Origin: Phormidesmis sp.
GTDB lineage: Bacteria; Cyanobacteriota; Cyanobacteriia; Leptolyngbyales; Leptolyngbyaceae
Assembly: GCA_965248535.1 (NCBI GenBank)
Contig: CBDFJR010000002.1
Coordinates: 576,001 to 640,000 of the forward strand
DNA length: 64,000 bases
Reading direction: 5' to 3'
Shown: positions 20,442 through 61,078 of the stretch, piece by piece
Position numbering within the stretch: the first letter of the stretch is position 1
How the letters are laid out: the number at the start of each line of letters is the position of its first letter
Made by a program: the position numbers and the translations under genes
The notes under the pieces: model-generated
Databases searched by the model: none
What the model saw: only the letters and a program-made list of their open reading frames with translations
What the model was told of the DNA's origin: nothing

Positions 20442-20622
20442 TAAAGGTGAACGATTCTGCACAGGGTGTAGGGAGAGGGTGCCAGTTTTGACCGTCAAAC
20501 TCAGGCTGATAGTCTATTGTAGAGTTTGAGTTTCTCGATTGCCTAGGCTGATTTGGTCAAAACAGTGAGACCCTTCGTAGCTTCAATTATGGACACTCTC
20601 TAGCATAAAGTAACGATAGAAA

Positions 20623-31487: not shown

Positions 31488-32438
31488 TTACTTCTTATTT
31501 TCAATACGTTCTAGTATTTCTGTGACAAGGTTTTTCCATTCTATTTGATGATCTTTTGTTGATCTCTCAAAGAACTATCAGAAGGGTGATATTCGATCAA
31601 GGGACGGTTGTCGGCTTCCGCTTTACGTATGATATCTGAACTCTTAATACGGCTCTTAAATATTATTGATTCTTTTCCTTTGCGAATATTTTTTGACAAC
31701 CATTCGTTAAACTCTGTCCCCATTTTTGGAATTCAAGATCCCATTTGTTGTTTTCAATCGTTGCTCTTGTATCAACCTTCGAGTAAAGAACCCCAAGTAA
31801 TTCAACTTCACAAGAAGCTTTGCACCTCTTCAAGCGCTTTACGCATTCGACAATTTTATCCAATCCCCAATGAGAATATGCATCCAGAAGAGTTGGCACA
31901 ATAAAGTAAGTGCTGAGGGAGAGAGCGTTTAGAGTGATCAGCCCAAGGCTTGGAGGACAATCAAAAATAATATGCGTATAAGCCTTACCTTCGGGATTTT
32001 TTAACTTGTGCAAAGCATTGAAAAGGATATCTGTCGCACTAAGGTAGTACCGGTGATACCCAACAAGCTTATCTTGAATATCGATAAGCTTTAGGCTGGA
32101 CGGCAGTAAATCAAGATTGAGTCCCTTGATCGGTGTCACCCTAATGTCACCGAGGTCAAAAGTTTCACTATCATCGTCTCGTGAGATCTCATTTTCAAAA
32201 AGCTGGTACAGAGTTTTGTTTTATCTATTTCTGCATATTGCTCTTTGTTCAATAGAGTAAGTGAGGCATTACTCTGAGGATCTAAATCAATAAGCAACAC
32301 TGATGCTGGCTTCGATCCCGATCCAAACTTGATTTCTCTTTTTGCCAAAGTAGCTGCCACATTTACTGCAGATGTTGTCTTTCCTACGCCACCTTTGAGG
32401 TTGATAAAGCTGATCACTGTAGCGTTGCCGATCTTCAT
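31488..32438 (-). pseudogene. ParA/Soj-family ATPase broken by three one-base deletions (possibly sequencing errors)
   Basis: [17 protein letters not shown] and FDCPPSLG; adding one base in each of three homopolymer runs gives a single 317-aa ORF. Confidence 0.85.
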
Positions 32439-33289: not shown

Positions 33290-33979
33290 TACGCCCAGCA
33301 TGGGTGTGAACTAATGGGGTGAAAGTCCCCTGTCGGAGAACCAACGTCCAAATGATCCCAAAAGATCCGAGTGACGACAACGACTAGCTTAAGGTAAGGG
33401 CGTTTCCGCGAGGAAGGGTCTGAAGGAAGCCAGCGGCAAATCTGCGAGCTGAGACAGAAACGTCATAGAAGGCGAGATTCCTGTGGCAAGTGAGCACAAC
33501 ATCATGAAGCCTTTTGGTTCAGGGAACACAGTAAATCAGTTGTGCAGAGACAGTTCACGTTCTTATCTGGGGAGAAGCTCAAAGGGCGGTCTGAGGGTCT
33601 ACGGGAGTCTGATTGAGGTCTAGCGGGAAACGGCTAGGGAGCCACGGAACCCTAAGGACATTCAGGCAGCGTGAGTCATGGCAACAGGACTCATGATTGA
33701 GCAGAAGTCAGCAGAGGTCATAGTAGCCAAACACTCACCGTAATGGGTGAGACAGGGTGAAGGGCTGAACCTTAGAAAGCAGGGAGGAGTTGCAAAGCTC
33801 GACTGGGCGATGAACCCGAACGGGGGAGCTATTTTGTCGGCGCTTAACTGCACAACCAGCCCTGGATATTCAGTTCTATTGAACTGGCTTGTCTAAAACT
33901 TTTCTGGGGACGCGCCCCGTGCGGAGCCGCACGCGGGGTGCCGTGGGGACTGGGGGAGAAAATCCCCTGGTTACCCGAT
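33290..33979 (+). ncRNA. ORF-less group II intron, bacterial class C (IIC, attC-targeting type)
   Basis: 5' CGCCCAGCATGGG...GGGGTGAAAGTCCCC; TCTGAAGGAAGC; AGAAGTCAGCAGAGGTCATAGTAG; domain V hairpin at about 33911-33942; domain VI ending ACCCGAT; no RT ORF. Confidence 0.88.
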
Positions 33980-37643: not shown

Positions 37644-38828
37644 ATGGCCAGTATTTCTACGGAGAATGTTTCATTAACGCAGTATCGGCAGCAGTTTCCT
37701 TCTCTAGAAAATGCCGCTTATTTTAACTATGGTGGGCAAGGCCCAATGGCACGATCGGCGCTCAACGCCATTAATCAAGCTCAGGAATTATTGCAAAAAA
37801 TGGGACCGTTTTCGAGTGCGGTCAATGCTTGGATGGGGGAAGAAGCGAAACAAACGAGAGGCGCGATCGCCGCAGAGTTAAACATCCCCATCGAGACGAT
37901 GACTCTGACTGAGGATGTCTCGGTCGGCTGCAATATTGCTCTTTGGGGCATTGACTGGCAAGCCGGAGATCACCTCCTGCTAACCGATTGCGAACATCCT
38001 GGAATTGTGGCGGCGGCGCAAGAGATTCAGCGGCGATTCAATATTGAAGTCTCGATGTGTCCGCTCAAGGCGACTCTAAATGAGGGCGACCCGGTGGCGG
38101 TGATTGTTGAGCATTTGCGTCCTCAGACTCGGCTCGTTGCTCTCAGCCACATTCTTTGGAACACGGGACAGGTTTTGCCGCTAGCGGCGATCGTGGCCGC
38201 CTGCCAAACCTACCCCAGTCAAAATCCCGTGAGAATTCTCGTCGATGCCGCTCAATCAGTGGGCGTGTTGCCCCTGAATCTTACCGACTTGGGAGCCGAT
38301 TTTTACGCTTTTACAGGGCATAAGTGGTGGTGTGGACCGGCAGGAGTGGGCGGTCTTTATGTGCGTCCAGAAGCGCGAGAAAGTTTGTCTCCGACCTTTA
38401 TTGGCTGGCGCAGCATCACCACGAATTCGTCAGGCACCCCGATCGGATGGCAACCCGATGGGCGACGCTATGAGATTGCAACGTCAGCCGTGCCCCTTTA
38501 TGCAGGATTGAGAGAGGCGATCGGGCTTCACTCAACCTATGGCACGATCGCCGATCGCTATCAGCAAGTATGCGATCGTAGCGCCTATTTGTGGCAAGCC
38601 TTGAACACATTACCGGGGGTGAACTGTTTACGAACGATCGCTCCCGAAGCGGGGTTAGTCTCATTTCAGTTAGATAACAGCAACCATAATTCACTCGTTC
38701 AATTGTTAGAAAGCAAAGGTATCTTTGTGCGTACCATTCTTGATCCCGATTGCGTTCGCGCTTGTGTTCATTATTTCACTACCGAATCAGAGATCAATCG
38801 ATTAGTAGAAACGATTCGAGAGTTTTGA
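37644..38828 (+). CDS. Class V PLP-dependent aminotransferase (cysteine/cystine lyase-like)
   Basis: YFNYGGQGP, VDAAQSVG and FTGHKWWCGP. Confidence 0.9.
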   Translation: MASISTENVSLTQYRQQFPSLENAAYFNYGGQGPMARSALNAINQAQELLQKMGPFSSAVNAWMGEEAKQTRGAIAAELNIPIETMTLTEDVSVGCNIALWGIDWQAGDHLLLTDCEHPGIVAAAQEIQRRFNIEVSMCPLKATLNEGDPVAVIVEHLRPQTRLVALSHILWNTGQVLPLAAIVAACQTYPSQNPVRILVDAAQSVGVLPLNLTDLGADFYAFTGHKWWCGPAGVGGLYVRPEARESLSPTFIGWRSITTNSSGTPIGWQPDGRRYEIATSAVPLYAGLREAIGLHSTYGTIADRYQQVCDRSAYLWQALNTLPGVNCLRTIAPEAGLVSFQLDNSNHNSLVQLLESKGIFVRTILDPDCVRACVHYFTTESEINRLVETIREF

Positions 38829-38903
38829 AGAGAATTGAGGTAAGCCTCTTACAATGTCTCTGTACAATAATTCAAGCTTTGACGTAATCCTTTACCCTTT
38901 CCC

Positions 38904-39992
38904 ATGCCTCAACCCATTCTCTATATCGCCATCACCAATCACGGATTTGGACACGCGACTCGTGCCGCTTCGGTGGCTGCCAAAATTCAAGAACTGTGTC
39001 CCGAAATTCTATTAATTTTGGCGACGACTGCGCCCCGATCGCTGCTAGAAGCTTACATTCCGGGTGATTTTATTCACCGTCCGCGTGGGCTTGATGTGGG
39101 CGTGGTGCAGTCTGATAGTTTAACAATGGATAAACCTGCAACGCTAGAGAAATTGCGAGCGATCAAAGCTAATCAACGATCGCTGATTGCCTCTGAGGTC
39201 AATTTCATTAAACAAAATCGCGTCGGATTAATTCTGGCAGACATTCCGCCGTTAGCGGCTGCGATCGCTAAAGCTGCGGGCGTTCCGGGTTGGATGATGG
39301 GCAACTTTGGCTGGGATTTCATCTACCGCGCTTGGGGCGGCGAATTTATTGAAATGGCAGACTGGATTAGCGAGTGTTTCACGCACTGCGATCGCTTGTT
39401 TCGGTTGCCGTTTCACGAGCCGATGGCGGCGTTTCCCACGATCGTAGATACCGGGTTAACGGGAGTGAATCCGCGCTTTGACTTGGCAGAACTGAAGGCG
39501 AAATTTAATCTCGCTGAGACTCCAAAAGAAAACATTGCGCTGATGACCTTTGGCGGATTGGGACTCGATCGCATCCCCTACGAAACGATGCAAAAATATC
39601 CTGACTGGCGGTTTATTTGCTTTGATCAGAGTGCGCCAGAGTTGCCCAATCTGCTGCGCGTTGACGATCGCTTCTATCGCCCCGTAGACTTTATGCAACT
39701 GTGCGGTCGCCTGATCTCAAAGCCGGGATACAGCACGTTTTCAGAAGCGTGTCGGCTTGACTTACCGATCGTCTCCCTGACTCGCGAAGGCTTTGCCGAG
39801 GCTCCCGTTTTGCTCGAAGGCATTCAAGACTATGCTTATCACCAAATTCTTTCGCCTGCGGAGTTCTTTCAGGGAAACTGGGAGTTTTTACAGCAACCGT
39901 TGACTGCGCCTCGTTTGTCTGAGTCGCTTTCTAAAGATGGCAATAACACGATCGCTCAAGCTGCGATCGAGTATTTGATGCCAAACCGTTAA
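38904..39992 (+). CDS. Glycosyltransferase-like protein (GT-B fold)
   Basis: HGFGHATR and ISKPGYSTFSEA. Confidence 0.8.
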   Translation: MPQPILYIAITNHGFGHATRAASVAAKIQELCPEILLILATTAPRSLLEAYIPGDFIHRPRGLDVGVVQSDSLTMDKPATLEKLRAIKANQRSLIASEVNFIKQNRVGLILADIPPLAAAIAKAAGVPGWMMGNFGWDFIYRAWGGEFIEMADWISECFTHCDRLFRLPFHEPMAAFPTIVDTGLTGVNPRFDLAELKAKFNLAETPKENIALMTFGGLGLDRIPYETMQKYPDWRFICFDQSAPELPNLLRVDDRFYRPVDFMQLCGRLISKPGYSTFSEACRLDLPIVSLTREGFAEAPVLLEGIQDYAYHQILSPAEFFQGNWEFLQQPLTAPRLSESLSKDGNNTIAQAAIEYLMPNR

Positions 39993-40020
39993 AATCGAAG
40001 TACCTCATTCGGTCTGCAAA

Positions 40021-40695
40021 ATGACGGCTTCCCTCTCTGTCACAGCCAACGTAGCCCATGATTCTAAAGTTCTTACCTGGCAGCCTGCCACTTGGGACGA
40101 GTATTTGACCGTTAGAGACTCAGCGCCCGATCGGGTCAGGTTATGGTTTAATGACGGCTATCTTTTAGCAGACGATATGGGCGGCGAGGGCATTAATCAT
40201 TCTAAAGTTTGTGATCTTTTTGTGATGATCCTGGCCTTCTGGTTTGCGGCTAAACCAGAGCAAATTGCAGAATCATTAGGGCGCTGTTTACTAGAAAAAC
40301 CTCAGCAGAAAGCCTGCGTTCCTGATCTGGTTTTGTATGGGGGCGATCGCATACCGCAGTGGAGTGAAGGGGAACCTCGACGCATTGATTTGACTCAGTG
40401 GCGTGTGCCTGATTTGGTCGGCGAGATTGCAGACACCACCCTTGCTAGCGATTTGGATGAAAAGAAGCAACTCTACGCCGCGTTGGGCATTCCTGAATAT
40501 TGGGTGATTGACGTGTTGGGTAAGCGAGTGATTGCCTTTCGGTTGCAGGAAAACGGCAAATATCTTCAGTGTGTCGAGTCTGTAGCGTTAGCAGGATTGC
40601 CTATTACATTGTTAGAGCAGACGCTCGATCGGTTAATTCAAAACACTAACATCAGCGCTGCAAATTGGTTTGCTCAACAAATCAGTTCGCTTTAA
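40021..40695 (+). CDS. Uma2-family endonuclease
   Basis: PDLVGEIA...DLDEKKQLYAALGIPEYWVID. Confidence 0.9.
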   Translation: MTASLSVTANVAHDSKVLTWQPATWDEYLTVRDSAPDRVRLWFNDGYLLADDMGGEGINHSKVCDLFVMILAFWFAAKPEQIAESLGRCLLEKPQQKACVPDLVLYGGDRIPQWSEGEPRRIDLTQWRVPDLVGEIADTTLASDLDEKKQLYAALGIPEYWVIDVLGKRVIAFRLQENGKYLQCVESVALAGLPITLLEQTLDRLIQNTNISAANWFAQQISSL

Positions 40696-40735
40696 ACTTA
40701 CTCATTCAAAACACAATTCAAACCCTATAATTTTC

Positions 40736-41152
40736 ATGGCTCAACATCAAAAAATTCTGACCATTCCCACTTCTGGCAAAGCGCTGCTGAGAATTAGCCA
40801 AAAGATTCAAGCGATCGTTACCGAATCCGGCATCAAAACGGGCATCTGTCACTTATTTTTGCGCCACACCTCCGCCAGTCTGATCATTCAGGAAAACGCT
40901 GACCCCGATGTGTTGAAAGACTTAGAGAACTTTTTCTCTAAACTCGTCCCCGAATGGGAAACCTATATTCACAGCGCTGAAGGTGATGACGATATGCCCG
41001 CCCACATTCGCACCGTGCTCACCCACACGTCAGAGCAGATCCCGATCGCTCAAGGCCGTTTGCTGCTCGGCACTTGGCAGGGCATCTATATTTGGGAGCA
41101 TCGACAGCGCAACCATCACCGCGAATTAGTGGTGCACATCACCGGAGAATAA
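40736..41152 (+). CDS. YjbQ-family protein (secondary thiamine-phosphate synthase)
   Basis: HTSASL, ENADPDV, DDMPAHI and LGTWQGI. Confidence 0.92.
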   Translation: MAQHQKILTIPTSGKALLRISQKIQAIVTESGIKTGICHLFLRHTSASLIIQENADPDVLKDLENFFSKLVPEWETYIHSAEGDDDMPAHIRTVLTHTSEQIPIAQGRLLLGTWQGIYIWEHRQRNHHRELVVHITGE

Positions 41153-41159: not shown

Positions 41160-42197
41160 GTGACCGAGCTACCGTTTTCGTCTAAAAAATCTAATCTGAT
41201 CTGGATTGTCTTAATCGCCAGTCTCAGCCTGGGTGGATGCAGCATTGAGAAAGCGCGGGCGCTGCAAGGGGCAGCCGTGCAGTTTAAAACAGAATCTTTG
41301 GCTGCGATCGACGCGATCGACCAAATGCGACAACGAGAATTAGAAGCACCGCCACGATCGCAGTCTGAGATTCGTCAGGGGTTTATCTCGCGGTTGCTCA
41401 ACTCTAAAGTTGACCTCAACAGCACCGTAATCGACCTAGCGATCGACCCGTTTCAGCCGCCCAAAGTTGCCGAGTGGGATGATTTCATCATCGATCTGCG
41501 GAGCCAATATGAAGGGTTTGCCTCGATTTTTGACAAGCTAAATAGCGGCACCTTAATCAGCCAAAGCGAAGCCCAGCAGTCGGCTGAATATGCCCGCAGG
41601 CTAACGGTGCAAATGGCGCTGCTGGCCGACGCGATTAACAAAAATCCGCCGATGCTGGGTCAATATCGGTCGCGCACGATCGTCAAACTCAAAAAACTTC
41701 GGCAAGATTATCAAACCCTGCTGACTCGCCTCAAAGCTAAAGAGTCAGGAAATTTCGATGGAACCGAAACCCTACAGCAGATGAACCAACGCAAATCAGA
41801 TCTTGAAAACCAAGCCGGAGAACTGATGAATGAATGGCAGCAGACCAAACAAGAAGAACAAAAGCTCCTCGAAACCACCGTTTCTCAATGCACTAAAGCC
41901 GCAACGATGGGCAAAGAATTGGTCGAAGTCGCCAATCACTACGACGAGCTAGATGTGAGTCAACTCAACACCCTGATTCCGAGAATTTTGACAACAGCGG
42001 CTGCTTTTACGGGTCGCGATTACAATACGGTCAGAGTTAAAGCGACTAATCTGGTGGCTCAAATTCAGTCTGACCCCCTGTGGAGTGACGTGACCAAAAC
42101 GCTGCTCGATCGGGTCAACACTGCCGCTGCTAGTCGCACTCAGCTACAGGTCAGATTGCCCCTGTCGCTTCCACCTGCTAATAGCCGCAATCGATAA
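41160..42197 (+). CDS. Putative helical lipoprotein, first gene of the PknG-type operon
   Basis: Basic N-terminus, hydrophobic stretch and LGGC lipobox; coiled-coil character. Confidence 0.7.
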   Translation: MTELPFSSKKSNLIWIVLIASLSLGGCSIEKARALQGAAVQFKTESLAAIDAIDQMRQRELEAPPRSQSEIRQGFISRLLNSKVDLNSTVIDLAIDPFQPPKVAEWDDFIIDLRSQYEGFASIFDKLNSGTLISQSEAQQSAEYARRLTVQMALLADAINKNPPMLGQYRSRTIVKLKKLRQDYQTLLTRLKAKESGNFDGTETLQQMNQRKSDLENQAGELMNEWQQTKQEEQKLLETTVSQCTKAATMGKELVEVANHYDELDVSQLNTLIPRILTTAAAFTGRDYNTVRVKATNLVAQIQSDPLWSDVTKTLLDRVNTAAASRTQLQVRLPLSLPPANSRNR

Positions 42198-42214
42198 CCT
42201 CACCTCACCGCTCT

Positions 42215-42514
42215 ATGTCTGACTCTAATCACCTGTTTTTGCAACAAGTCGCCAATTTGATGAATGACCTCAACGTGCGCTACATGGAGGCGGAATTTGA
42301 CGATCAGGTGCAGCTTAAAGATCAGCTAGATCAAGCGATGAATGATTTTTCTAAAGCAAAGTTAGCGATTCTCAAAAACACCATCACCTGCACCGCCGAC
42401 GATGTGAGACAGATGCAGCAACTGCGACAGCGACTCGCAAAAGCCCCTAATTTGCAGCAAATTTTGACGACCGTTATTAGTTTTGCAAACTTTGTTCGAT
42501 TGCGGTTTCTCTAA
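42215..42514 (+). CDS. Small helical hypothetical protein
   Basis: 99-aa ORF tightly packed in the operon. Confidence 0.7.
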   Translation: MSDSNHLFLQQVANLMNDLNVRYMEAEFDDQVQLKDQLDQAMNDFSKAKLAILKNTITCTADDVRQMQQLRQRLAKAPNLQQILTTVISFANFVRLRFL

Positions 42515-42541
42515 GCATCACGGGCTATTGGCAAACGAACT

Positions 42542-43753
42542 ATGATCACGATCGAGCGCCTTGATCAACTTCTCACCGACTGGAAGCACAAACTCAATTT
42601 GGTCAGTCAAAACCTGATTGACCTTCAAGATTTGCCCACTTATCAACAGTTGGCAGGCGCGCCCGGAGTCGCAAAAACCCAGTTAATCGGAGTCACCGCC
42701 ACCCAGGTCACGCCAGCTTTAGAGGCGATTAACGAGCTATTTCAGCAGTTTGATTTGCTGACTCAGCCGATCGAGCAGGCGACTCAGCTTCGCAAGCAAA
42801 TGTCTCGGTTTTTGGGGTCAGAAAAAGCGCTGCAAGATATTGAAACGCTGCTGACGGGCGCTTCGATTCGGCTGCCTGTGGTACAAACGCCCCTCGCCAA
42901 CCGAGATTTGCTCACGGCCGCAGAAACCACAGCGACGATCGCGCCTGCTCAACTGCTGTCGGTGATGATGCAGCGATTTCAAGCCGCGAGAGATGTGGTG
43001 TTGGCCGTTGATGCGGCATGGCTGGCACTAGAGTCTATGCTGGTGGCGGCTGAGGCTGAGATCCGATCGCTTCAGCAATCGGCAAATTTAATCGATCAGG
43101 GTTCTCTAACAGAATTGGGGCAAGTGCATCAAGCGATCGCCACTTTGCACGATCGCATTCAGCAAGATCCGTTAGGGGTGAGAATAGAATTTGAGCAAAC
43201 CCTTCAGCCTTTGATCACACGAGCTAGAAATGCCGTTCAAAAAGGAGTTCAGCAACAGGCGCAAGTGCGAGAGAGACTGGCGATCGCTCAAACGCTATTG
43301 ACTCAATTAGAAACACTGCATCAAAAAAATCTAGCCGCCTTTGCGGAAAGTCAAGAAAAAGTTGTGGATCACTCTTTGCTACAAGCTCCGATCGCTCCAG
43401 AGCATCTTTCTGCCCTCGGTCAATGGCTGACTCGCCTCGCAGCCAAATCAGCCGAGGGGCTAGTCAGCCCCGTTTTGATTGGCCTAGACAATTGGATCAC
43501 CCAAGCCCAAGCGTCTATCGCCTCCGAAAAACGGGCATACTCAGCTAATCTCAAACCCCTCGAAACTCGCCGTGAGTTACGCGGCCGACTCGATGCCCTC
43601 AAAGCCAAAGCTCTCGCGAGAGGATTTGCTGAAGATGCCACCCTGGTTGAACTTGCCGCCCAAGCTAAACAGCTTCTCTACACCCGTCCTACGCCCCTAG
43701 ATGCCGCGATCGCATTAGTTGCCCACTATGAAAAACGTCTCAATAGTCATTAG
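42542..43753 (+). CDS. Coiled-coil protein of the type found before PknG-like kinases
   Basis: All-helical; C-terminal RRELRGRLDALKAKA...LYTRPTPL. Confidence 0.75.
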   Translation: MITIERLDQLLTDWKHKLNLVSQNLIDLQDLPTYQQLAGAPGVAKTQLIGVTATQVTPALEAINELFQQFDLLTQPIEQATQLRKQMSRFLGSEKALQDIETLLTGASIRLPVVQTPLANRDLLTAAETTATIAPAQLLSVMMQRFQAARDVVLAVDAAWLALESMLVAAEAEIRSLQQSANLIDQGSLTELGQVHQAIATLHDRIQQDPLGVRIEFEQTLQPLITRARNAVQKGVQQQAQVRERLAIAQTLLTQLETLHQKNLAAFAESQEKVVDHSLLQAPIAPEHLSALGQWLTRLAAKSAEGLVSPVLIGLDNWITQAQASIASEKRAYSANLKPLETRRELRGRLDALKAKALARGFAEDATLVELAAQAKQLLYTRPTPLDAAIALVAHYEKRLNSH

Positions 43754-43777
43754 CAGTCTACTCACAGGAGTGGTTGA

Positions 43778-45946
43778 ATGAACGGCGCTCCCTGCACTCG
43801 AACCCCTTGCACAGGAACCCTTGACGATGGGTATTGCGACGTTTGCGGACTCGCGGCGATCGCGACTTCTAGCGCTCAGTTCAGCGCCAGAGTCACCGGA
43901 AGAAGCGTCCCTACGACCGGAACGGGGTCTTCGCCCTTGACCAATCGGGCTTCTAAAGGGTCGCGGCGCACTCAATCGACCTCAGCCCGCAGCACTCGCA
44001 GACAGTTAGGCGCAGGCTTAATTTCGGTGCCCGACTTGCCTTCAATCGAGCCAGAAAAGGCGATTTTGATTGAAGCAAAAGTGCCCGAAAACAAACGCTT
44101 TTGCGGCAACTGCAACAATGCTCTCAAGCGAGAAAAAGGCTTTTGCAGCAAATGCGGACAGAAATATTCCTTTGTCGCCACCCTAAAACCGGGCGATGTG
44201 GTGGCGGGTCAATATGAAGTCAAAGGCGCGATCGCTTACGGCGGTCTAGGCTGGATTTATCTCGGCATTGACAAAACTCTGTCGCGCTATGTGGTGCTCA
44301 AAGGGTTGCTCAACACCGAAGATGCCGCTAGCGCTGCCGTTGCGGTGGCCGAGCGTCAGTTTCTCGCGGCGGTCAAACACCCCAACATTGTGGGCATCTA
44401 TAACTTTGTCAACCACGGCACCGAAGGCTTCATCATCATGGAGTATGTCGGCGGGCAAACTCTCAAAGACCTTCGCAAACAGCGAGGCTTGCTGCCCGTC
44501 ACCGAAGCGATCGCCTATATTCACCGCATTCTCAGTGCCTTTGCTTATCTGCATCAGTTGGGGTTGGTCTATTGTGACTTTAAGCCTGACAACGTGATGC
44601 TAGAAGGCGATGATGTCAAGCTGATTGACTTGGGCGGAGTGCGCCGCATTGATGATCCCAATGGGGATATTTACGGCACAGTAGGCTACAGTGCCCCCGA
44701 AGCTGGAGACGGCCCCACAATTCCATCCGATCTGTTCACGGTTGCGCGGACGCTGGCGGTGTTAATCACCAACATCAAGGGCTTTAGCAAAGAGCATCTC
44801 TTCACGTTGCCCAATGCCAACGAAGACCCGATTTTTGCTCAACACGAGTCACTCTATCGATTTTTGATCAAGGCGACGGCGGATAATCCTGACGATCGCT
44901 TGCAGACGGCTGATGAGATGGCCGATCAGCTATTGGGGGTGCTGCGAGAAATGGTGGCGTTAGAGACTAACATCCCTCGCCCCACGTCTAGCAATTTATT
45001 TAGCGGCGATCGGTTAGCGCTGATTAACAGCAGCGACTCTGCACCAATTAAAGCCGATTATGATCAGTTACCCATCCCGTTGTTAAATTCCGCCGATCCC
45101 GGATTTAACGCTGTGATGAATGCTAGCGCGATCGCAGACAGCACCCATCGCATTGAGAATTTATCCCAAGCGGTTAAACAGTTTCCTAAGTCAACTGAAG
45201 CGGTTTTGCGATTGGCCAATAGCCTGATCGGAGTCAACTCTGCTCAAGCTGAAACCTATTTAGCCGAGGTTGAAGCCAAAGACCCGTGGGATTGGCGAGT
45301 CTTGTGGTATCGCGGACGATCGCTGATGGCCCAAGGCAAATTTAAAGACGCTCAGGCAGCCTTTGATCAGGTTTATTTTGACTTGCCCGGAGAGTTAGCG
45401 CCAAAACTGGCGTTAGCCCTATCAGCCGAGCAAGCCAAAAATTATCCTTTAGCGATCAAGATGTATGATTTGGTGTCTCGCACCGATCCCGGTTATGTCT
45501 CGGCGGCCTTTGGGCTAGCGCGCTGTCTGTGCGCCACGGGCGATCGTCCAGGAGCCGTTGCCGCTTTAGAACGGGTGCCGCCATCGTCGAGTTTGTTCAC
45601 CCGATCGCGGGTTGAGGTGGCCCGCACGTTGATCAATCGCGATCGCAGCGCGCCCGGTGCTTCTGAGCTAAAGGCGGCTTCGACGGCGATCGAGGCATTG
45701 ACCTTAGACGGCGTTGAGCGGCATCGGCTGACCCAACAAGTGCTCGAAACCGCCCTGCATTTAGTGACCACCAAAGCCGTTTCGCCGACTGCCTCGATCG
45801 CGATTCTCGGTCAACCGCTAGAGGAGTCCAAAATCAGAAAAGGACTCGAAAAAGCCTTACGTGCTCTCGCCCATCTCGCAACAGGGGACGAAAAAATCAA
45901 GCTGGTCGATGAAGCCAATCAGGTCAGACCGAGGAGTTTATTTTAA
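43778..45946 (+). CDS. PknG-like Ser/Thr kinase (Cys-rich N-terminus, rubredoxin-like domain, kinase domain, TPR domain)
   Basis: VPENKRFCGNC...FCSKCG; GQYEVKGAIAYGGLGWIYL; VVLKGLL; DFKPDN; TPR region with PGELAPKLALA. Confidence 0.9.
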   Translation: MNGAPCTRTPCTGTLDDGYCDVCGLAAIATSSAQFSARVTGRSVPTTGTGSSPLTNRASKGSRRTQSTSARSTRRQLGAGLISVPDLPSIEPEKAILIEAKVPENKRFCGNCNNALKREKGFCSKCGQKYSFVATLKPGDVVAGQYEVKGAIAYGGLGWIYLGIDKTLSRYVVLKGLLNTEDAASAAVAVAERQFLAAVKHPNIVGIYNFVNHGTEGFIIMEYVGGQTLKDLRKQRGLLPVTEAIAYIHRILSAFAYLHQLGLVYCDFKPDNVMLEGDDVKLIDLGGVRRIDDPNGDIYGTVGYSAPEAGDGPTIPSDLFTVARTLAVLITNIKGFSKEHLFTLPNANEDPIFAQHESLYRFLIKATADNPDDRLQTADEMADQLLGVLREMVALETNIPRPTSSNLFSGDRLALINSSDSAPIKADYDQLPIPLLNSADPGFNAVMNASAIADSTHRIENLSQAVKQFPKSTEAVLRLANSLIGVNSAQAETYLAEVEAKDPWDWRVLWYRGRSLMAQGKFKDAQAAFDQVYFDLPGELAPKLALALSAEQAKNYPLAIKMYDLVSRTDPGYVSAAFGLARCLCATGDRPGAVAALERVPPSSSLFTRSRVEVARTLINRDRSAPGASELKAASTAIEALTLDGVERHRLTQQVLETALHLVTTKAVSPTASIAILGQPLEESKIRKGLEKALRALAHLATGDEKIKLVDEANQVRPRSLF

Positions 45947-45951
45947 GCGTC

Positions 45952-46917
45952 ATGCCAACTATTCAATGTCCAACCTGTGATGCCGCCGTTTTGCAAGACG
46001 ACCAGTTTTGTGAAGAATGCGGCACGGCTTTAATCGAGAAATCTGGGATAGGCTGTGAGAAATGCGGTGCGCCGCCGGACACGATCGACGCAGAAGGCTT
46101 TTGCAATCAGTGTGGGTTTCGGCGAGAAGCCAAGACGGGCGATCGTGTGGAAATCATTCTCAACCCCAATTTGGCTGGAGTCAGCGATCGGGGCCTCAGA
46201 CATCATCAAAACGAAGATTTTCTGGCATTGCAAACCCTTGGGACTGCTGAAATTCTGGTCGTTTGCGATGGGGTATCCAGTTCTCATCACCCCGAACTTG
46301 CGTCTCAAGCGGCTTCTAAAAGTGCAAGTTTAGCGCTGGCATCAGCCCTGCAAACCGGAGCCGCGCCAGAGGTTGCCCTTCAGTCGGCGGTCAAGACTGC
46401 CCTCTCAGACGTTTGTCGCTTGGTGGAAGGTCAGTCAGATGCCGAGCCGCCGTCTACCACTTTGGTCGCGGCAGTAGTGCAAGCGGGCATCGCCACGATC
46501 GGGTGGCTGGGCGACAGTCGGGCTTACTGGATTTCGGAAACTGGATCACGACAGTTAACTCACGATCACTCCTGGGTTAATGACGCGATCGCGTCGGGCA
46601 AAATGACCGCAGTCGAGGCCAATCACGCGCCGCAGGCCCACGCAATCACGCGCTGGCTAGGAGCCGATGCCCAAGATGCAGGTGATCCTACGATCGTCCA
46701 GTTTCCGCTTCCTGGCGCTGGTTATCTGCTGCTCTGTAGCGACGGGCTGTGGAACTATGCACCCGCAGCCCAACAGATTCAGGGATTAGTGCAAAAAAGT
46801 TTGAAACTAGATGCGGTGACGATCGCCCGATCGTTGGTTGAGTTTGCCCGATCGCAGGGGGGACGCGATAATATTACCGTTGCGCTATTCATTCATCCTT
46901 CGTTAACGTCTGATTAA
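45952..46917 (+). CDS. PP2C-family phosphatase with N-terminal zinc ribbons
   Basis: Four CxxC; NEDF, VCDGVS, GDSRAY, CSDGLWN and GGRDNITV. Confidence 0.92.
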   Translation: MPTIQCPTCDAAVLQDDQFCEECGTALIEKSGIGCEKCGAPPDTIDAEGFCNQCGFRREAKTGDRVEIILNPNLAGVSDRGLRHHQNEDFLALQTLGTAEILVVCDGVSSSHHPELASQAASKSASLALASALQTGAAPEVALQSAVKTALSDVCRLVEGQSDAEPPSTTLVAAVVQAGIATIGWLGDSRAYWISETGSRQLTHDHSWVNDAIASGKMTAVEANHAPQAHAITRWLGADAQDAGDPTIVQFPLPGAGYLLLCSDGLWNYAPAAQQIQGLVQKSLKLDAVTIARSLVEFARSQGGRDNITVALFIHPSLTSD

Positions 46918-46963
46918 TCCAACCGTTATCTTTTTTGTCATATTCTCCATTCCTTACAAATCT

Positions 46964-48241
46964 ATGGCTACTCAATTCACGGCTGAAGTCTTCCAAAATC
47001 AATTTTTGCCCCAAGGGTCGAGAGAAGTCCACGCGATCATGACTGTGAACGCTGGCGAGAACACAGAAATCTCAAGTAGCGTATCGGGCGATCGACTGTT
47101 TGGCATTATTTGCGACACGTCAGGATCAATGGGCGGACAAAAAATCCGATCGGCAAAAGATGCCCTGATCAAAGTCGTCAATCTGCTTCCCGAAGATGCC
47201 CATTTTTTCATTGTCACGGGGGCAAGCAGTGCGCGATTAGTCGCTCCATTAACCCAAGCCACGCCTGAAAATAAACAGCGCGCGATCGTCAATATTCGCT
47301 CGATCGAAGCCAGTGGCGGAACGCTGATTTCAACCTGGCTGAATGCGGCGCTTAAACAGTTTCAGCAAATGCCGACCGCCATTCGTCAAGCCTTATTGCT
47401 GACCGACGGGCAAAATGATGAATCGGATGAAAAAGCCTTCGATCGGGTGCTTAAAACCTGTGAGGGCGTGTTTCAATGTGACTGTCGAGGAGTCGGAACC
47501 GACTGGCGCGTTGCTCAACTCAAACGCATTTCTAGCAAGCTTCTGGGCACCACTGACATCATTGCCGATGCGCTGCTGATTGAAGCTGATTTTCAGGCGA
47601 TCTTGCAGCAGGCGATGGGCAAAAACATTAGCGATGTGGCCATGCGGCTGTGGACACCTCAAGGAGCCAAGATTCTGTTTTGCAAGCAGGTCAGCCCTGA
47701 TATTGTCGATCTCACCGATCGGGCAAAATCTCTAAAACCCCAAGTGGTTGACTATCCCACAGGAGCGTGGGGCAAACGCGAATCACGAGATTATCACTTC
47801 TGCATTGAGGTCAATCCGGGGAATGTGGGCGACGAAATGCTGGCGGGTCGAGCGAGTTTGATCTGCACGATCGCGGGCACCGAGACTAAAATCGCCGAAG
47901 CCCGCATCCTGGCAGTTTGGACGGATGACGATGCAAAATCCACTAAGATCGATCGCCGCGTCGCTCACTACACCGGGCAAGCCGAACTCGCCCAAACCAT
48001 TCAAGAAGGGCTAGATGCCCGCAATCAAGGCAACGTTGAAGTCGCCACCGCCAAACTCGGACGAGCCGTTAAAATCGCTCACGAATCGGGCAACGAAGCC
48101 ACCGCTAAACTTCTCAGAACGGTGGTAGAAATCGAGGACGCGCCCACCGGAACCGTGCGATTGAAAAAAGCGATCGCCAAAGAAGACGAAATGGCCTTGG
48201 AAACCCGATCAACCAAAACCACCCGCATTCCCAAGTCATAA
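46964..48241 (+). CDS. von Willebrand factor A domain protein
   Basis: MIDAS DTSGSM and LLTDGQN. Confidence 0.9.
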   Translation: MATQFTAEVFQNQFLPQGSREVHAIMTVNAGENTEISSSVSGDRLFGIICDTSGSMGGQKIRSAKDALIKVVNLLPEDAHFFIVTGASSARLVAPLTQATPENKQRAIVNIRSIEASGGTLISTWLNAALKQFQQMPTAIRQALLLTDGQNDESDEKAFDRVLKTCEGVFQCDCRGVGTDWRVAQLKRISSKLLGTTDIIADALLIEADFQAILQQAMGKNISDVAMRLWTPQGAKILFCKQVSPDIVDLTDRAKSLKPQVVDYPTGAWGKRESRDYHFCIEVNPGNVGDEMLAGRASLICTIAGTETKIAEARILAVWTDDDAKSTKIDRRVAHYTGQAELAQTIQEGLDARNQGNVEVATAKLGRAVKIAHESGNEATAKLLRTVVEIEDAPTGTVRLKKAIAKEDEMALETRSTKTTRIPKS

Positions 48242-48249
48242 CCGCTACT

Positions 48250-48948
48250 ATGTCTACCTATCTCTGCCCCAAAGGTCACCAATCTAGCGAGTCAGACTAT
48301 TGCTCAGAATGCGGTGTGAAAATTGTCAGCAGTTCTGCCCCGATCGTGCCTTCCATTCCTCAGCACGCTGCTGTCTTATGTCCCGATTGCAGCGCTCCTC
48401 ACGAACTACACGGCGGCAATTTTTGCGAAATTTGCGGCTATAACTTCTTGACCAAAGCTCACGGAGAATTGCCGATCGTCCCGCCTGCTGTGCCCGTTGT
48501 TGCACCCGTTGCTGTGCCCGAAGTCATAGCACCCCTTGAAACGGTCACGACGAAACAGCCAGAATCAGCGCCTTGTGGCTGGCAAGCAGTGGTCACGATC
48601 GACCCATCTCTACGTCACCCCGATAGCCCAGGGCCGCCAGCAGACCAGCCTCCGATCACGATTCGTCTCGATCAGCCAACTCATTTAATCGGTCGCACCA
48701 GCCAAGCCAGAGCCGTTTATCCCGATATTGCGGTGGATTTGGATGACGCTGTTTCTCATCGCCACGCGATTGTCGATCGCTCGTCAGACAACACGCTGAT
48801 CTTGCGCGATATCGGCTCCTCTAACGGCACTCAATTGAATGGAGTTGAACTCCAACCCATGACAGATGTGACCCTTAAAGACGGGGACGAGATCACGATC
48901 GGGCATTGGACAAAAATCATCATTCAAGCCATTACTCAATCCGCATAA
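48250..48948 (+). CDS. Zinc-ribbon plus FHA domain protein
   Basis: CPKGH...CSECG and CPDC...CEICG; IGR, VSHRHA and DIGSSNGT. Confidence 0.92.
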   Translation: MSTYLCPKGHQSSESDYCSECGVKIVSSSAPIVPSIPQHAAVLCPDCSAPHELHGGNFCEICGYNFLTKAHGELPIVPPAVPVVAPVAVPEVIAPLETVTTKQPESAPCGWQAVVTIDPSLRHPDSPGPPADQPPITIRLDQPTHLIGRTSQARAVYPDIAVDLDDAVSHRHAIVDRSSDNTLILRDIGSSNGTQLNGVELQPMTDVTLKDGDEITIGHWTKIIIQAITQSA

Positions 48949-48961
48949 TTTGTGATCTACC

Positions 48962-50371
48962 ATGACTGCTATCAAAAAAACCGCAATCAGATCCACTCAA
49001 AAACTAACGACTCCTCAAAAAATTAGAATTGGTGTAGGAATCACTTGGGGACTAGGATTACTATCACTAATTACTACGATTTCAGGAGTGCAACAGCAGC
49101 GTGACGCGATCAAAACGGTGGGCAAAGACACAACGCCTAGCATTATCACAGCCCAACGCTTAAAAGATGGGCTATCGGGAATGGATGCCTTCGCAGCTAG
49201 TGAATTTTTAGTGCCGTCTAGCAACACCCAAAATTCATTTCTAGACCCCATTGGGAAAGATCAAAATGGAGCCATTATTCAAGGCTATAACGAGCGCTAT
49301 AAATCGGTTGCCGAACGATTAGTTATGGCAGCCAATAACCTTACCTATGAGGAAGAGCGAGAACCGATCCAAACCATGCAGCTTGGGATTGGGGAGTATG
49401 TGGCTAAGATTCAGCAGGCGCGAGACGCACACATTCGCCGCGACCAAACTGGAATGTTGACCGCTTATTTGGCGGCGGCTGAAGTTATGGACAATACTCT
49501 TTTGCCTGCTGCCGATCGCTTAGACCAGGCAAACGTTAAAGTTCTCGATCACACCTATGATGAGCAAAAATTTGCCTTTGCCCGATCGCTGTTTTTGATC
49601 ACAATCATCACCCTAGGGCTAACCGGATTCTTAGTCCTGTTTCAGCTATTTCTCAGCCGCCGCACTCGGCGCACGCTGAATCCTTTTTTGCTGTCAGCTA
49701 CGGCGATCGCGCTGGTGTTTTTAGCCCACACGATCGGGTCATTGCTGTCTGCTTCCCATCATCTCAAAGTCGCTAAAGTAGATGCCTTTGACTCAATGCA
49801 CTCTCTGCGTCAGGCTCGTGCGCTTGCTTATGGGGCCAATGCTGACGAGAGCCGCTATTTGCTAGATGCTAAAAATGCCGCCACTCACGAGCGAGCCTTC
49901 TTTAACAAGATGAACCAAATTGCCGCCCCTCCCAACGGTCAGACGCTTGAGCAAATCACGCTTCTCGCTCAACAGCAAACCAAACTCGTCGGGTTAACTG
50001 GGTTTTTGGGAGAAGAGTTAAGCAACATCACATTTCCGGGCGAACGAACGGCCGTGATCGATACCCTGTCTGCGCTCTCTAACTATCTAAAGATCGATCA
50101 ACAAATTCGCCAACTTCAGCAAAGCGGAAAATATCGAGAGGCGATCGCGCTCTGCACAGGCAACAATCCCGGTGAGTCTGATTGGGCCTTTGAGCAATTT
50201 AAAACAGCCAATTCAAAAACCTATGATGTGAACAGTAAAGCCTTTGACGCTGCCATCGGTCAGGGCAATCAAGATCTGGAGGGATTTGAAACCAAAACCA
50301 CGATCGCCCTCGCCGCGATCGCCCTACTCACTCTGCTAGGGACAATGCCTCGCCTTAAAGAATATTCTTAA
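48962..50371 (+). CDS. GlnX-like membrane protein (about four TM helices, two helical sensor-type domains)
   Basis: TM / helical domain / TM-TM / helical domain / TM; motifs MDAFAASEFL and ANADESRYL; terminal PRLKEY. Confidence 0.65.
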   Translation: MTAIKKTAIRSTQKLTTPQKIRIGVGITWGLGLLSLITTISGVQQQRDAIKTVGKDTTPSIITAQRLKDGLSGMDAFAASEFLVPSSNTQNSFLDPIGKDQNGAIIQGYNERYKSVAERLVMAANNLTYEEEREPIQTMQLGIGEYVAKIQQARDAHIRRDQTGMLTAYLAAAEVMDNTLLPAADRLDQANVKVLDHTYDEQKFAFARSLFLITIITLGLTGFLVLFQLFLSRRTRRTLNPFLLSATAIALVFLAHTIGSLLSASHHLKVAKVDAFDSMHSLRQARALAYGANADESRYLLDAKNAATHERAFFNKMNQIAAPPNGQTLEQITLLAQQQTKLVGLTGFLGEELSNITFPGERTAVIDTLSALSNYLKIDQQIRQLQQSGKYREAIALCTGNNPGESDWAFEQFKTANSKTYDVNSKAFDAAIGQGNQDLEGFETKTTIALAAIALLTLLGTMPRLKEYS

Positions 50372-52410: not shown

Positions 52411-55066
52411 TTATGAATCGGTGGGCACCTGCGGGACAGCAACAACTTTTTTGTCAAATGCCAGTTTGTCATCTACCAAATCGACCAGAATGGTGTCGCC
52501 ATCGACAAAAGTGTTTTCGAGCAGCTTGGTGGCGATCGGGTTCTGCAATTCTCGCTGAATCGCCCGCTTTAACGGACGAGCACCATACACCGGGTCATAG
52601 CCCAAATCAGCAATATAGTTTCGAGCCGCGTCGCTGAGTTGGATCTGGATTTTTTTGTCAGCCAACATCCCTTGAATGCGCTTTAGTTGCAGCACGACGA
52701 TTTCGCCCAACTCAGCCCGACTGAGGGGATGGAAGAGAATCGTGTCATCAATCCGGTTGAGAAACTCCGGCCGAAAATGTTTTTGTAGAGCAATCATCAC
52801 TCGCCGCTGCATCTCATCATATTTAGAGTCATCGCCCGCAACATCCAAGAATGTGTTCGCTGCCAATATTGCTGGTCATCACAATCACGGTGTTGCTGAA
52901 GTCGATCGTTCTGCCTTGAGAATCGGTAATGCGCCCATCGTCTAACACTTGCAGCAAAATGTTAAACACATCGGGGTGAGCTTTTTCGACTTCATCCATC
53001 AACACGACAGAGTAGGGTTTGCGCCGCACCGCTTCCGCCATTTGTCCGCCTTCTTCATAGCCGACATAGCCCGGCGGTGCCCCAATCACCCGCATCACCG
53101 AGCTTTTGTCCATATATTCCGACATATCCATCCGCACCATTGCGTCATCGGCATCAAACAAAAATTGCGCTAATGCTTTGGCAAGCTCGGTTTTTCCGAC
53201 TCCTGTTGGCCCCATGAATAGGAACGACCCGATCGGGCGACCGGGATCTTTCATGCCCGATCGGGCCCGACGAATGGCCGCCGACACCGCCTCGACCGCA
53301 TCTTGTTGCCCAATCACTCGCTGATGCAAATGGTGTTCTAACGTCAAGAGTTTTTGCCGCTCTGACTCCAGCAAGCGATTCACCGGAATGCCCGTCCATT
53401 TGGCGACAATCTCGGCAATATCAGCCTCAGAAACTTGCTCTCTGAGCAGCGTTGAGCCATTGGTCTGCATTTCGAGCAGTTGCGCTTCTTGGGTTTCTAA
53501 ACTGCGCTGCACCGTGCTGAGGCGATCGTATTTCAGCTTGGCGGCCGTGTTGAGATCATAGGCCCGTTCGGCTTGATCGATTTGTACCTTGAGGTGTTCT
53601 TCTTCTTCTTTGAGGTGGTTAATTTCTTCTAGAATCTGCTTTTCATTTTCCCATTGAGAACTCAGCCCTTGCTGCTTTTTCCCCAACTCTTCGATCTCTT
53701 GCTGAATGCGCTCTAACCGATCTTTTGAAGGCCGAAACGCTGCCCCTGTCGTGGCTGTTTTGCCTTCTCCTTCGAGAGAAAGCTTCTCCATTTCTAGCTG
53801 TCTCAAGCGCCGCTCGGTCGTCTCTAACTCGACGGGTTTTGAGGTGATCTCCATCTTGAGTTTGGCGGCGGCTTCGTCTACGAGATCGATCGCTTTGTCG
53901 GGCAAGAAGCGATCGGCGATGTAGCGGCTCGACAGCGTTGCCGCAGCAACCAAGGCAGAATCGGTAATTTTCACCGCGTGGTGAACTTCGTAGCGATTTT
54001 TTAGCCCCCGCAAGATCGAGATGGTGTCCTCAACCGACGGCTGCTCAACGAGAACTTGCTGAAATCGCCGTTCTAACGCGGCATCTTTTTCGATATATTT
54101 ACGATATTCATCTAGCGTGGTTGCGCCAATGCAGCGCAGTTCGCCCCGGGCCAGCATCGGCTTCAGCAGGTTGCCTGCATCCATGTTGCCTTGAGTGGCT
54201 CCGGCTCCAACCACGGTGTGAAGCTCGTCGATAAAAAGCACGACTTGCCCATCGGAGTTGATCACTTCTTTAAGCACAGCGCGGAGACGGTCTTCAAATT
54301 CGCCGCGATATTTTGCGCCAGCGATTAAAGAACCCATGTCTAGCGAGATCAAGACGCGATTTTTTAAAGATTCCGGCACGTCGCCGTTGACGATGCGTTG
54401 GGCTAGGCCTTCAGCGATCGCCGTTTTGCCCACGCCCGGTTCACCGATGAGAACCGGATTATTCTTCGTCCGGCGAGACAACACTTGAATCACCCGCCGA
54501 ATTTCTTCATCTCGCCCGATCACGGGATCAATCTTTCCGGCTTTGGCCTTTTCGGTCAGATCTTGTCCAAATTTTTCGAGCGCAGAATAGCGGGATTCAG
54601 GACTTTGGTCGGTGACTTTTTGGCTGCCCCGCACTTCTTTGATCGCCGTTTCTAATTTGGCGGTGTCGAGATTAAACCCGCGAAACAGCTTCATTCCCAA
54701 GCGGGGATCGTTGGCAAACCCGATTAAAAAATGCTCGATCGAGATAAAGTCATCTTGCCAATTGTTGCGCGCTAGCTCCGAGCGATCGAGCAACGTGTCT
54801 AAATAGCGACCCAAATAAAGCTGCTCAGTGTTGCCGACTTTGGGCTGTCGCTTGGCATAGTCATCGACCTGCTGACCCAACTGCTGCACATCGACCCCGG
54901 CTTTAGTAAGAATCTTATTAGCCAGCCCATCTTTTTGCTCAATGACGCTGGTGAGCAGGTGCTCAACTTCTAAATTTTGGTGTTTATAGCGCCGAACCAC
55001 ATCCTGCGCTTGGACGATCGCCTCCCATGCTTTGTCAGTAAATTTGCTTGGGTCAGTGGGTTGCAT
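52411..55066 (-). CDS. clpB: ATP-dependent chaperone ClpB, split by a one-base insertion at about 52846 (likely sequencing error)
   Basis: GEPGVGKT and GPTGVGKT Walker A motifs, coiled-coil M-domain; removing one base joins SNIGSEHIL to DVAGDD...[10 protein letters not shown]. Confidence 0.93.
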
Positions 55067-61046: not shown

Positions 61047-61078
61047 GTTGCTCACCAATGATCAAGCTTGCCTCTAGT

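Follow-up and report, generated by a model that had tools for sequence, protein, structure and literature searches.

What would a kinase of the PknG type, known from the GlnH-GlnX-PknG-OdhI/GarA pathway of Corynebacterium and Mycobacterium, do in a cyanobacterium, and with which partners would it work? PknG is among the most studied bacterial serine/threonine kinases; to our knowledge no dedicated phosphatase is known for it, and how the membrane protein GlnX signals to it is still open. In cyanobacteria 2-oxoglutarate is a central signal, the enzyme targeted by the actinobacterial pathway is absent, and there is no canonical 2-oxoglutarate dehydrogenase complex. We approach the question through a stretch of 64,000 nucleotides (nt) from Phormidesmis sp. 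(GenBank assembly GCA_965248535.1, contig CBDFJR010000002.1, positions 576,001 to 640,000), referred to here as the window. The region studied, 9.2 kilobases (kb) on the + strand at positions 41160-50371, holds eight open reading frames (ORFs), named g1 to g8 (Table 1), which an initial annotation had taken as one actinobacterial-type PknG signalling operon.

We hypothesise that six of these genes, g3 to g8, make up a self-contained module for transmembrane Ser/Thr phospho-signalling of the PknG/GlnX type, that this module is old and spread across many phyla, and that the glnX-glnH-pknG trio is a reduced variant of it. On the evidence that follows we regard this as rather probable. The proposal starts from gene neighbourhood. 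One genome per GTDB species was scanned with an alignment of the kinase and the 80 best loci were kept, of which 38 are from Actinomycetota, 20 from Cyanobacteriota, 7 from Acidobacteriota, 3 from Pseudomonadota, 2 each from Planctomycetota, Chloroflexota, Dormiibacterota, Armatimonadota and Myxococcota, 1 from Verrucomicrobiota and 1 unclassified. The ORFs of all 80 were searched with the eight proteins of the window together with nine proteins from actinobacterial and other loci, and a locus was taken as assessable where at least 7 kb was present on both sides of the kinase (n=40). In 36 of these 40 the genes g3, g5, g6, g7 and g8 all lie on the strand of the kinase, and because all six share one strand so consistently their association is far beyond chance. 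Loci with the complete module belong to Cyanobacteriota, Acidobacteriota, Planctomycetota, Chloroflexota, Pseudomonadota and Actinomycetota, and the module was found in at least 10 phyla. Local order is equally constant: of the module genes, it is g3 that immediately precedes the kinase in 65 of 65 loci, g6 is followed by g7 in 58 of 58, and g4 by g5 in 66 of 67. The order as a whole behaves as a rotated ring, reading g6-g7-g8-g3-g4-g5 in Chloroflexia and Pseudomonadota and g5-g6-g7-g8-g3-g4 in a Pseudanabaena. The ORFs, packing, orientation and domain calls of the initial annotation all hold, as does its expectation that the kinase, PP2C, vWA and FHA genes are conserved together. Its eight-gene unit has to be shortened: no homologue of g1 or g2 was found in any of the 80 loci and g3 to g8 are kept together, so that the conserved unit consists of six genes.

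In Actinomycetota the module has further members. The order in the assessable loci of this phylum is TelA-AAA-GlnX-GlnH(SBP_bac_3)-g3-like-PknG-PP2C-vWA-FHA, the AAA ATPase being of the SpoVK/EccA/CbbX type. This nine-gene stereotype is seen in loci L041-L078 (for example L049, 3002-15360), from Kribbella, Nocardioides, Lapillicoccus, Microlunatus and many uncultured genomes. TelA is followed by the AAA gene in 25 of 25 cases and the AAA gene by GlnX in 25 of 26; GlnH, TelA and the AAA ATPase are each present in 21 of the 23 assessable Actinomycetota loci. Since glnX, glnH and pknG all stand inside the nine-gene cluster, the known trio is, in this phylum, embedded in a larger set. TelA also lies directly before the vWA gene in two Pseudomonadota loci. 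An excerpt of Kaur et al. (2020) describes actinobacterial kinase-PP2C-vWA genes adjoining GAP1-N2 GTPases; in the loci examined here no GTPase was seen. As a separate observation, in a Bryobacterales locus (L024) two SpoIIE-type phosphatase genes, one of them with GAF-domain matches, come right after the module (16354-20528), and an AAA ATPase gene stands directly before g3.

The kinase itself, g4, consists of an N-terminal zinc ribbon, a Ser/Thr-rich linker, a rubredoxin-like domain, the kinase domain and a TPR domain. The rubredoxin-kinase-TPR layout had been read as that of PknG, and a search with hidden Markov models bears this out, Pfam returning PknG_rubred with 59.2 bits over residues 72-136 (cut-off 28.5), Pkinase with 114 bits and PknG_TPR with 233.3 bits over residues 430-720 (cut-off 27). 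Among PDB sequences, M. tuberculosis PknG (2PZI) is matched with 455.6 bits from residue 76 to the last residue, 722, and the C. glutamicum kinase (7MXB) with 315 bits, whereas no PknB chain scores higher than 88.5 bits. Twenty-six diverse relatives were aligned. Across them the catalytic residues K175, E192, D267, K269, N272 and D284 are invariant or nearly so; two of the rubredoxin cysteines, C109 and C123, never vary, and the other two, C112 and C126, are kept in at least 90%; and the cysteines of the extra N-terminal ribbon, C6, C11, C20 and C23, are again invariant or nearly so. Judged by its sequence, g4 is an intact and true PknG-family kinase. The extra ribbon is missing, and the N-terminus is long and disordered, in representatives from Rhodococcus, Williamsia, Millisia, Amycolatopsis and Frankia, which are the classical PknG lineages; those of Williamsia and Frankia are named PknG by a source.

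Such kinases are common among cyanobacteria. A search with g4 gave 7976 proteins at E<=0.001, the best 120 of which are all 72-91% identical to it, include proteins from Phormidesmis, Nostoc, Calothrix, Cylindrospermum, Pseudanabaena and Coleofasciculus, and in several cases are already labelled PknG. At E<=1e-30, an exhaustive search with g4 among 50%-identity representatives gave 1128 clusters. Identity to the Nostoc proteins is 73-74% for both the kinase and the vWA protein, to those of Bryobacteraceae 65% and to those of Kribbella 43-44%, and between distant cyanobacterial orders the identity is 71-74%. With kinases at least 72% identical in many cyanobacterial genera, and 20 of the 80 loci cyanobacterial, the idea of a system unusual in a cyanobacterium is not supported. 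The kinase had also been partly anticipated in print, an excerpt of Lisa et al. (2021) mentioning in passing a PknG homologue with a rubredoxin domain in Calothrix; to the six-gene module we return below.

The descent of the kinase was examined in a quick IQ-TREE analysis of 81 kinases, comprising that of the window, 74 from the loci, five canonical representatives and one unrelated kinase of the window as outgroup. The tree needs eight changes of phylum label, which is the minimum possible, and each phylum forms one side of a branch. The kinase of the window lies among the cyanobacteria, and Cyanobacteriota and Acidobacteriota group together with a support value of 100 in this quick tree. A branch valued at 97 in it has on one of its sides the 36 rows from Actinomycetota together with the five canonical PknG representatives, Dormiibacterota adjoining them. 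All 80 PknG-like rows are set apart from the single outgroup kinase, whose branch length is 10, and the Chamaesiphon kinases form a long-stemmed clade of their own. In terms of this tree, the kinase of the window and canonical PknG belong to one family and to different subclades. The tree speaks against cyanobacteria having recently acquired these genes from Actinobacteria, and it would allow an early presence of the extended cluster within Actinomycetota. The actinobacterial framing of the locus is not supported by this result, the cyanobacterial kinases standing with Acidobacteriota and not inside Actinomycetota. Taken together, the high conservation of kinase and vWA protein and a tree that follows the phyla fit a core signalling role.

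The membrane component, g8, matches the NCBIfam subfamily model NF058618 ('GlnX family signal transduction membrane protein') with 304.2 bits, above its cut-off of 250, in keeping with the description of g8 as GlnX-like. The existence of this model means that a wider GlnX family has already been recognised by curators; on the GlnX-like genes of nine other loci across phyla it gives 222-336 bits, and six of the nine reach 250. Hydropathy places hydrophobic segments at about residues 23-43, 209-227, 243-261 and 447-465; the two large loops have about 165 and 185 residues, and segments 2 and 3 are joined by a basic loop of 15 residues. The layout equals that of C. glutamicum GlnX, for which four transmembrane segments and two loops have been shown experimentally, according to an excerpt of that study (PMC9769921). 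R237 in the short basic loop and G460, R464 and E467 in the C-terminal tail are invariant, N240 (short loop) and Y468 (tail) are at least 90% conserved, and both stretches lie on the predicted cytoplasmic face. By profile match and hydropathy, then, g8 is a GlnX-family protein with four transmembrane segments.

Of the three genes that follow the kinase, g5 matches the Pfam models DZR, PP2C_2 and PP2C and the NCBIfam Stp1 model (151.6 bits), and its metal-site motifs, N87, D89, D106, G107, D188, D264 and D306, are invariant in 63 sequences; these residues mark it as an intact PP2C. The vWA protein, g6, matches Pfam VWA_3 and VWA_3_C, and its residues 4-423, which include the C-terminal domain and the Ser/Thr-rich tail, match PDB 4FX5 ('von Willebrand factor type A') with 349.6 bits. 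The latter is a structural-genomics vWA structure, similar to g6 from end to end, and is a structure only. In 60 sequences T120 and D148 of the MIDAS site never vary, and its D51, S53 and S55 are kept in at least 90%. The C-terminal tail is conserved across phyla at S416, T417, T419 and R421 (at least 90% each), with Ile or Val at the +3 position from T419, and the motif pThr-x-x-Ile/Val/Leu is a common form of FHA ligand. A further motif of g6, C-D-C-R-G at residues 172-176 (DNA about 47477-47491), is conserved in the same 60 sequences from many phyla, C172, D173, C174 and R175 in at least 90% and G176 in all.

The FHA protein, g7, has two zinc ribbons and an FHA domain (56.8 bits, Pfam). In 29 sequences its cysteines C6, C18, C21, C44, C47, C59 and C62 are invariant, as are the phosphothreonine-binding residues G148, R149, S169, R171, N192 and G193. 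Against the OdhI model NF041660 it reaches 33.5 bits, where the cut-off is 200; its linker is variable in the 29 sequences, in which no conserved ETTS-like or other Thr motif was found. A 'TT' stretch in the linker was considered as a GarA-like acceptor and rejected, as it is not conserved. The score and the linker mark g7 as something other than a GarA/OdhI orthologue, and they uphold the earlier expectation that the output differs from the GarA/OdhI route. In the translations, the ribbons of the kinase, the PP2C and the FHA protein, as well as the rubredoxin-like domain of the kinase, all end in an aromatic-C-x-x-C-G knuckle. A zinc-ribbon type common to kinase, phosphatase and FHA protein may indicate that the three dock on one platform.

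The remaining member, g3, matches no Pfam or NCBIfam family. A model from its single sequence was poor (pLDDT 55), and an AlphaFold model made from a 28-row alignment, with long helices and a pLDDT of 92.3, was used instead. Compared with the PDB by Foldseek, this model gave nothing at E<=0.001, the best matches being vinculin, designed helical bundles and EzrA at E 0.18-0.96. Profile matches to the PDB, for example coronavirus spike HR1, are heptad-repeat look-alikes, which we read as composition and not as homology, and the idea that g3 is a diverged TelA was rejected (hhalign probability 0.1). Its C-terminal 95 or so columns are homologous to the actinobacterial g3-like protein (hhalign probability 96.4, E 1.2e-9). 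The ESM Atlas gave, as a lead only, unnamed clusters commonest in Actinomycetota and Cyanobacteriota and an EzrA cluster at 0.83. A predicted complex of g3 with kinase residues 137-722 had a score of 0.00 and a mark of 0.32, which speaks neither for nor against binding.

How might these six proteins act together? We propose that the GlnX-like protein would sense a periplasmic or envelope cue through its two large outward loops, and that the cue would be passed through the short cytoplasmic loop and the C-terminal tail of g8 to the kinase, probably by way of the TPR domain, as has been proposed for actinobacterial PknG. The kinase would then autophosphorylate its own Ser/Thr-rich N-terminal linker and phosphorylate its partners. 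Our foremost candidate target is the C-terminal end of the vWA protein, rich in Ser and Thr, with T419 and its Ile or Val at +3. The FHA protein would read the phosphothreonine, the PP2C would reset the switch and g3 could serve as a scaffold. The vWA and FHA proteins would in this way form a phosphorylation-dependent pair of reader and adaptor, and the output would most likely be the control of unlinked proteins by FHA or vWA binding. The interactions and the direction of signal flow are ones that we infer, in part from the actinobacterial model.

The comparison with that model shows how far it can be carried over. The GlnH-GlnX-PknG-OdhI/GarA pathway shares with the locus a rubredoxin-kinase-TPR kinase, a GlnX-family protein with four transmembrane segments and an FHA protein. 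It differs in that the cyanobacterial loci have no GlnH, and that g7 carries two zinc ribbons, lacks ETTS and fails the OdhI model; here, moreover, there are in addition a PP2C, a vWA protein and g3, and an extra N-terminal zinc ribbon on the kinase. With neither a GlnH partner nor a GarA-type substrate in cyanobacteria, both input and output differ from those of the actinobacterial pathway. A more specific version of the proposal would hold that the six-gene set is the ancestral PknG machine and the trio its stripped remnant, that PknG phosphorylates the vWA tail and the FHA protein captures it, that the vWA-FHA complex is assembled or released under the control of the GlnX-like membrane sensor, and that the cyanobacterial input is not amino acids and the output not 2-oxoglutarate dehydrogenase; all of this together we offer tentatively, as a doubtful proposition. 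In this version the cyanobacterial output is possibly envelope or membrane homeostasis, as hinted by the TelA and SpoVK/EccA-type AAA neighbours in other phyla.

Several observations weigh against the six-gene proposal. The length of the outgroup branch makes the root of the tree, and with it the direction of descent, unreliable, and the canonical PknG rows are long in the tree and their gene neighbourhoods were taken from the literature; for both reasons, that the trio was reduced from a larger cluster is something we infer. The score of g8 with the GlnX equivalog model NF041460 ('protein kinase G-activating protein GlnX') is 74.1 bits, far below the cut-off of 780; the GlnX genes in the clusters of Kribbella, Nocardioides and Lapillicoccus fail this model too (73-156 bits). 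Four of the 40 assessable loci are incomplete. The kinase stands alone in three of three Chamaesiphon loci (L015, L017 and L025) with flanks of up to 10 kb, only L015 among them being assessable, and in a Tumidithrix locus g8 is missing and a P450 gene takes its place; the other incomplete loci are one from Dormiibacterota without g3 and one actinobacterial locus with broken ORF calls. GlnH was found in none of the eight assessable cyanobacterial loci, and the cluster of the window has no SBP_bac_3 gene. The cluster also holds no gene for an output or effector. In the literature searched, the coverage of which was incomplete, no description of the six-gene module, or of its link to PknG, was found.

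Four other explanations can be set against these same data. The locus could be a recently transferred actinobacterial PknG operon that still regulates 2-oxoglutarate/glutamate metabolism through a GarA-like FHA protein, which would suit the first definition of the PknG and GlnX families in Actinobacteria and the presence of an FHA protein in the cluster. We judge this highly improbable, because the cyanobacterial kinases group with Acidobacteriota, apart from the Actinomycetota rows and canonical PknG alike, because the module is spread over many cyanobacterial families, and because g7 falls short of the OdhI model, has no conserved phospho-acceptor in its linker and is not accompanied by GlnH. 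The composition of the cluster is also that of its host, as the initial annotation had noted in calling it HIP1-rich and ameliorated: HIP1 (GCGATCGC) occurs 13 times in the 9.2 kb region (1.41/kb) and 71 times in the 64 kb window (1.11/kb), and the guanine-cytosine (GC) content of the cluster equals that of its surroundings. Another explanation would retain all eight genes, g1 (with g2) having replaced GlnH in this lineage as the periplasmic ligand sensor for the GlnX-like protein. The eight ORFs do run on one strand with intergenic gaps of 17, 27, 24, 5, 46, 8 and 13 nt, the first two of which join g1 and g2 to g3. The predicted lipoprotein g1 has a signal-like hydrophobic segment at 11-29 and a lipobox Cys27, with a lipobox-type motif in 74 of its 88 homologues, and Phormidesmis priestleyi ULC007 has homologues of g1, the kinase and g7. 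C. glutamicum GlnH is likewise a lipoprotein in the excerpt cited (PMC9769921). Yet the loci without g1 and g2 include a Stenomitos locus with 9 kb upstream, although g1 has a homologue in a Stenomitos species; in several cyanobacterial loci g3 is preceded by a gene on the opposite strand; and g1 bears no signature of a solute-binding fold. The co-oriented run, moreover, which had been taken to comprise eight genes, is real and begins four + strand ORFs earlier (37644-41152), with an aminotransferase, an unassigned ORF, a Uma2 and a UPF0047 gene, the last of them unrelated and ending 7 nt upstream of g1, and only g3 to g8 are conserved together within it. All 88 homologues of g1 come from Leptolyngbya-like cyanobacteria. 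No Pfam, NCBIfam or PDB relative was found for g1 and no Pfam or NCBIfam family for g2, and the ESM Atlas offers for g1, as a lead only, unnamed lipoprotein-like clusters. By their distribution g1 and g2 are neighbours specific to the lineage and not members of the conserved module, and we consider the eight-gene explanation unlikely; a role for g1, as a lipoprotein, as a local periplasmic co-sensor is speculation.

A different kind of explanation turns on the vWA, PP2C and kinase genes g4 to g6, which stand side by side and might form a stress or conflict system, that is, a metal- or infection-sensing switch for a toxic-anion, membrane-stress or anti-phage response. An excerpt of a study that cites Anantharaman et al. 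(2012) (PMC10542128) describes TerY-P triads as switches built of a vWA protein, a PP2C and a Ser/Thr kinase and linked to tellurite resistance, describes TerY-P-like modules as stand-alone phage defence, and gives the TerY-P kinase a C-terminal zinc ribbon or OB fold. The locus resembles such triads in the adjacency of the three genes, in its zinc ribbons and in the association with TelA in some phyla (the Actinomycetota and Pseudomonadota loci given above), and PADLOC models for kinases, PD-T4-6 and mad6 among them, match the kinase domain of g4. The kinase here, however, is of the PknG type with a C-terminal TPR domain in place of a zinc ribbon or OB fold, and FHA, GlnX-like and g3 genes are added. 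The PADLOC matches are generic ones, to kinase and PP2C, with none for the vWA protein (at E<=0.01) or for the FHA and GlnX-like proteins; PADLOC probably includes TerY-P models. A Pfam scan of the 48 other ORFs of the window found the genes around the cluster to be mostly housekeeping, with no secretion-system domains, and no nuclease or other effector, TelA or SpoVK/EccA-type AAA ATPase is present in the window. A tree that follows the phyla and a high degree of conservation are also unlike patchy, fast-moving defence genes. The earlier suggestion of a conflict system thus keeps the generic kinase and PP2C matches in its favour and loses on the vWA protein and the neighbours, and we think this explanation clearly unlikely. 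FraH of Anabaena, needed for intracellular membrane reorganisation in heterocysts, combines a double zinc ribbon with a Pro-rich linker and an FHA domain, and by analogy the output of the module might be remodelling of membranes or cell-cell junctions. The order of zinc ribbons, Pro-rich linker and FHA domain in g7 is the same. But no protein called FraH, and none from Anabaena/Nostoc PCC 7120, stands among the 120 best of the 848 homologues of g7, so that FraH as a named orthologue of g7 is unsupported, and the module also occurs in unicellular and non-cyanobacterial organisms; we take this explanation to be very unlikely. A further likeness is to PpkA-PppA-Fha1, the threonine phosphorylation pathway of the Pseudomonas type VI secretion system, which combines the same domain types (Hanks kinase, PP2C, FHA and vWA) in a reversible switch on an envelope signal. 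There kinase and vWA form one protein, PpkA, according to an excerpt of the source (PMC1262709), whereas the vWA protein here is separate and cytoplasmic; the kinase is of a different family and the window has no secretion-system genes.

The six-gene, PknG/GlnX-type module remains the reading we prefer, and Table 1 sets its genes beside the other features of the window. Terminator-like signals in the region number 19, compared with 14.0 (sd 3.1) in shuffled sequence, which is not above expectation, and a promoter scan of the region was also not above the shuffled expectation. Among the neighbours, a ClpB-type chaperone is encoded by two overlapping ORFs instead of one, one with Clp_N, AAA and AAA_2 and the other with ClpB_D2-small, which indicates a frameshift (a pseudogene or a sequencing error). 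A ParA/AAA_31-type ATPase gene likewise lies in two abutting ORFs, each corresponding to half of the Pfam model. Rfam recognises group II intron domains D1-D4 at two places (94.7 and 63.7 bits); the ORFs near them have no Pfam match, and an intron-encoded protein was not recognised among these. The second, unrelated Hanks-type kinase, used as the outgroup of the tree, stands tail to tail with a protein bearing two MarR-type winged-helix domains. A DUF3854 protein and an HNH endonuclease suggest the remains of a mobile element, and a large protein that joins a type I phosphodiesterase domain to RTX calcium-binding repeats is probably secreted. Of two genes of the Uma2 family (putative restriction endonuclease-like), the first belongs to the run just upstream of the cluster.

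Table 1. Features of the 64,000 nt window, with positions counted from its first letter; roles in the module are proposed or predicted.
Feature	Position	Strand	Description
g1	41160-42197	+	predicted lipoprotein, helical, 345 aa; lineage-specific neighbour, outside the conserved module
g2	42215-42514	+	small protein, 99 aa; outside the conserved module
g3	42542-43753	+	all-helical cytoplasmic protein, 403 aa, directly before the kinase; proposed scaffold/adaptor
g4	43778-45946	+	PknG-family Ser/Thr kinase, 722 aa
g5	45952-46917	+	PP2C phosphatase with N-terminal double zinc ribbon
g6	46964-48241	+	cytoplasmic vWA protein with complete MIDAS motif and Ser/Thr-rich C-terminal tail
g7	48250-48948	+	predicted phosphothreonine reader: two zinc ribbons, Pro-rich linker, FHA
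g8	48962-50371	+	GlnX-family four-helix transmembrane protein with two large periplasmic loops; proposed sensor/transmitter
DUF3854 protein	10228-13326	-	1033 aa
HNH endonuclease	15289-15783	+	
MarR-type protein	17952-18899	+	two winged-helix domains
Second Hanks-type kinase	18906-20498	-	531 aa; unrelated to g4
Phosphodiesterase/RTX protein	27253-31080	-	1276 aa
ParA/AAA_31-type ATPase	31666-32438	-	two abutting ORFs, 32139-32438 and 31666-32139
Group II intron match	33402-33561	+	94.7 bits
Group II intron match	33670-33765	+	63.7 bits
Uma2-family gene	40021-40692	+	within the run upstream of g1
ClpB-type chaperone	52414-55066	-	ORF 52832-55066 (Clp_N, AAA, AAA_2) and ORF 52414-52866 (ClpB_D2-small)
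Uma2-family gene	60369-61058		

For the biology of cyanobacteria, the locus flags a highly conserved and so far unstudied Ser/Thr signalling module. For the PknG family it supplies candidate ancestral partners of a much-studied kinase, and what may be a fuller form of a pathway that has so far been studied only in its reduced actinobacterial version. It also gives work on PknG a set of candidate partners and motifs, namely the tail of the vWA protein, the loop and tail of GlnX on the cytoplasmic side and the zinc ribbons that several of the proteins share. If the PP2C, the vWA protein, the zinc-ribbon FHA protein and g3 are indeed ancestral partners of PknG, the pathway would be accessible in harmless organisms, cyanobacteria and soil actinobacteria, that keep all of its parts.

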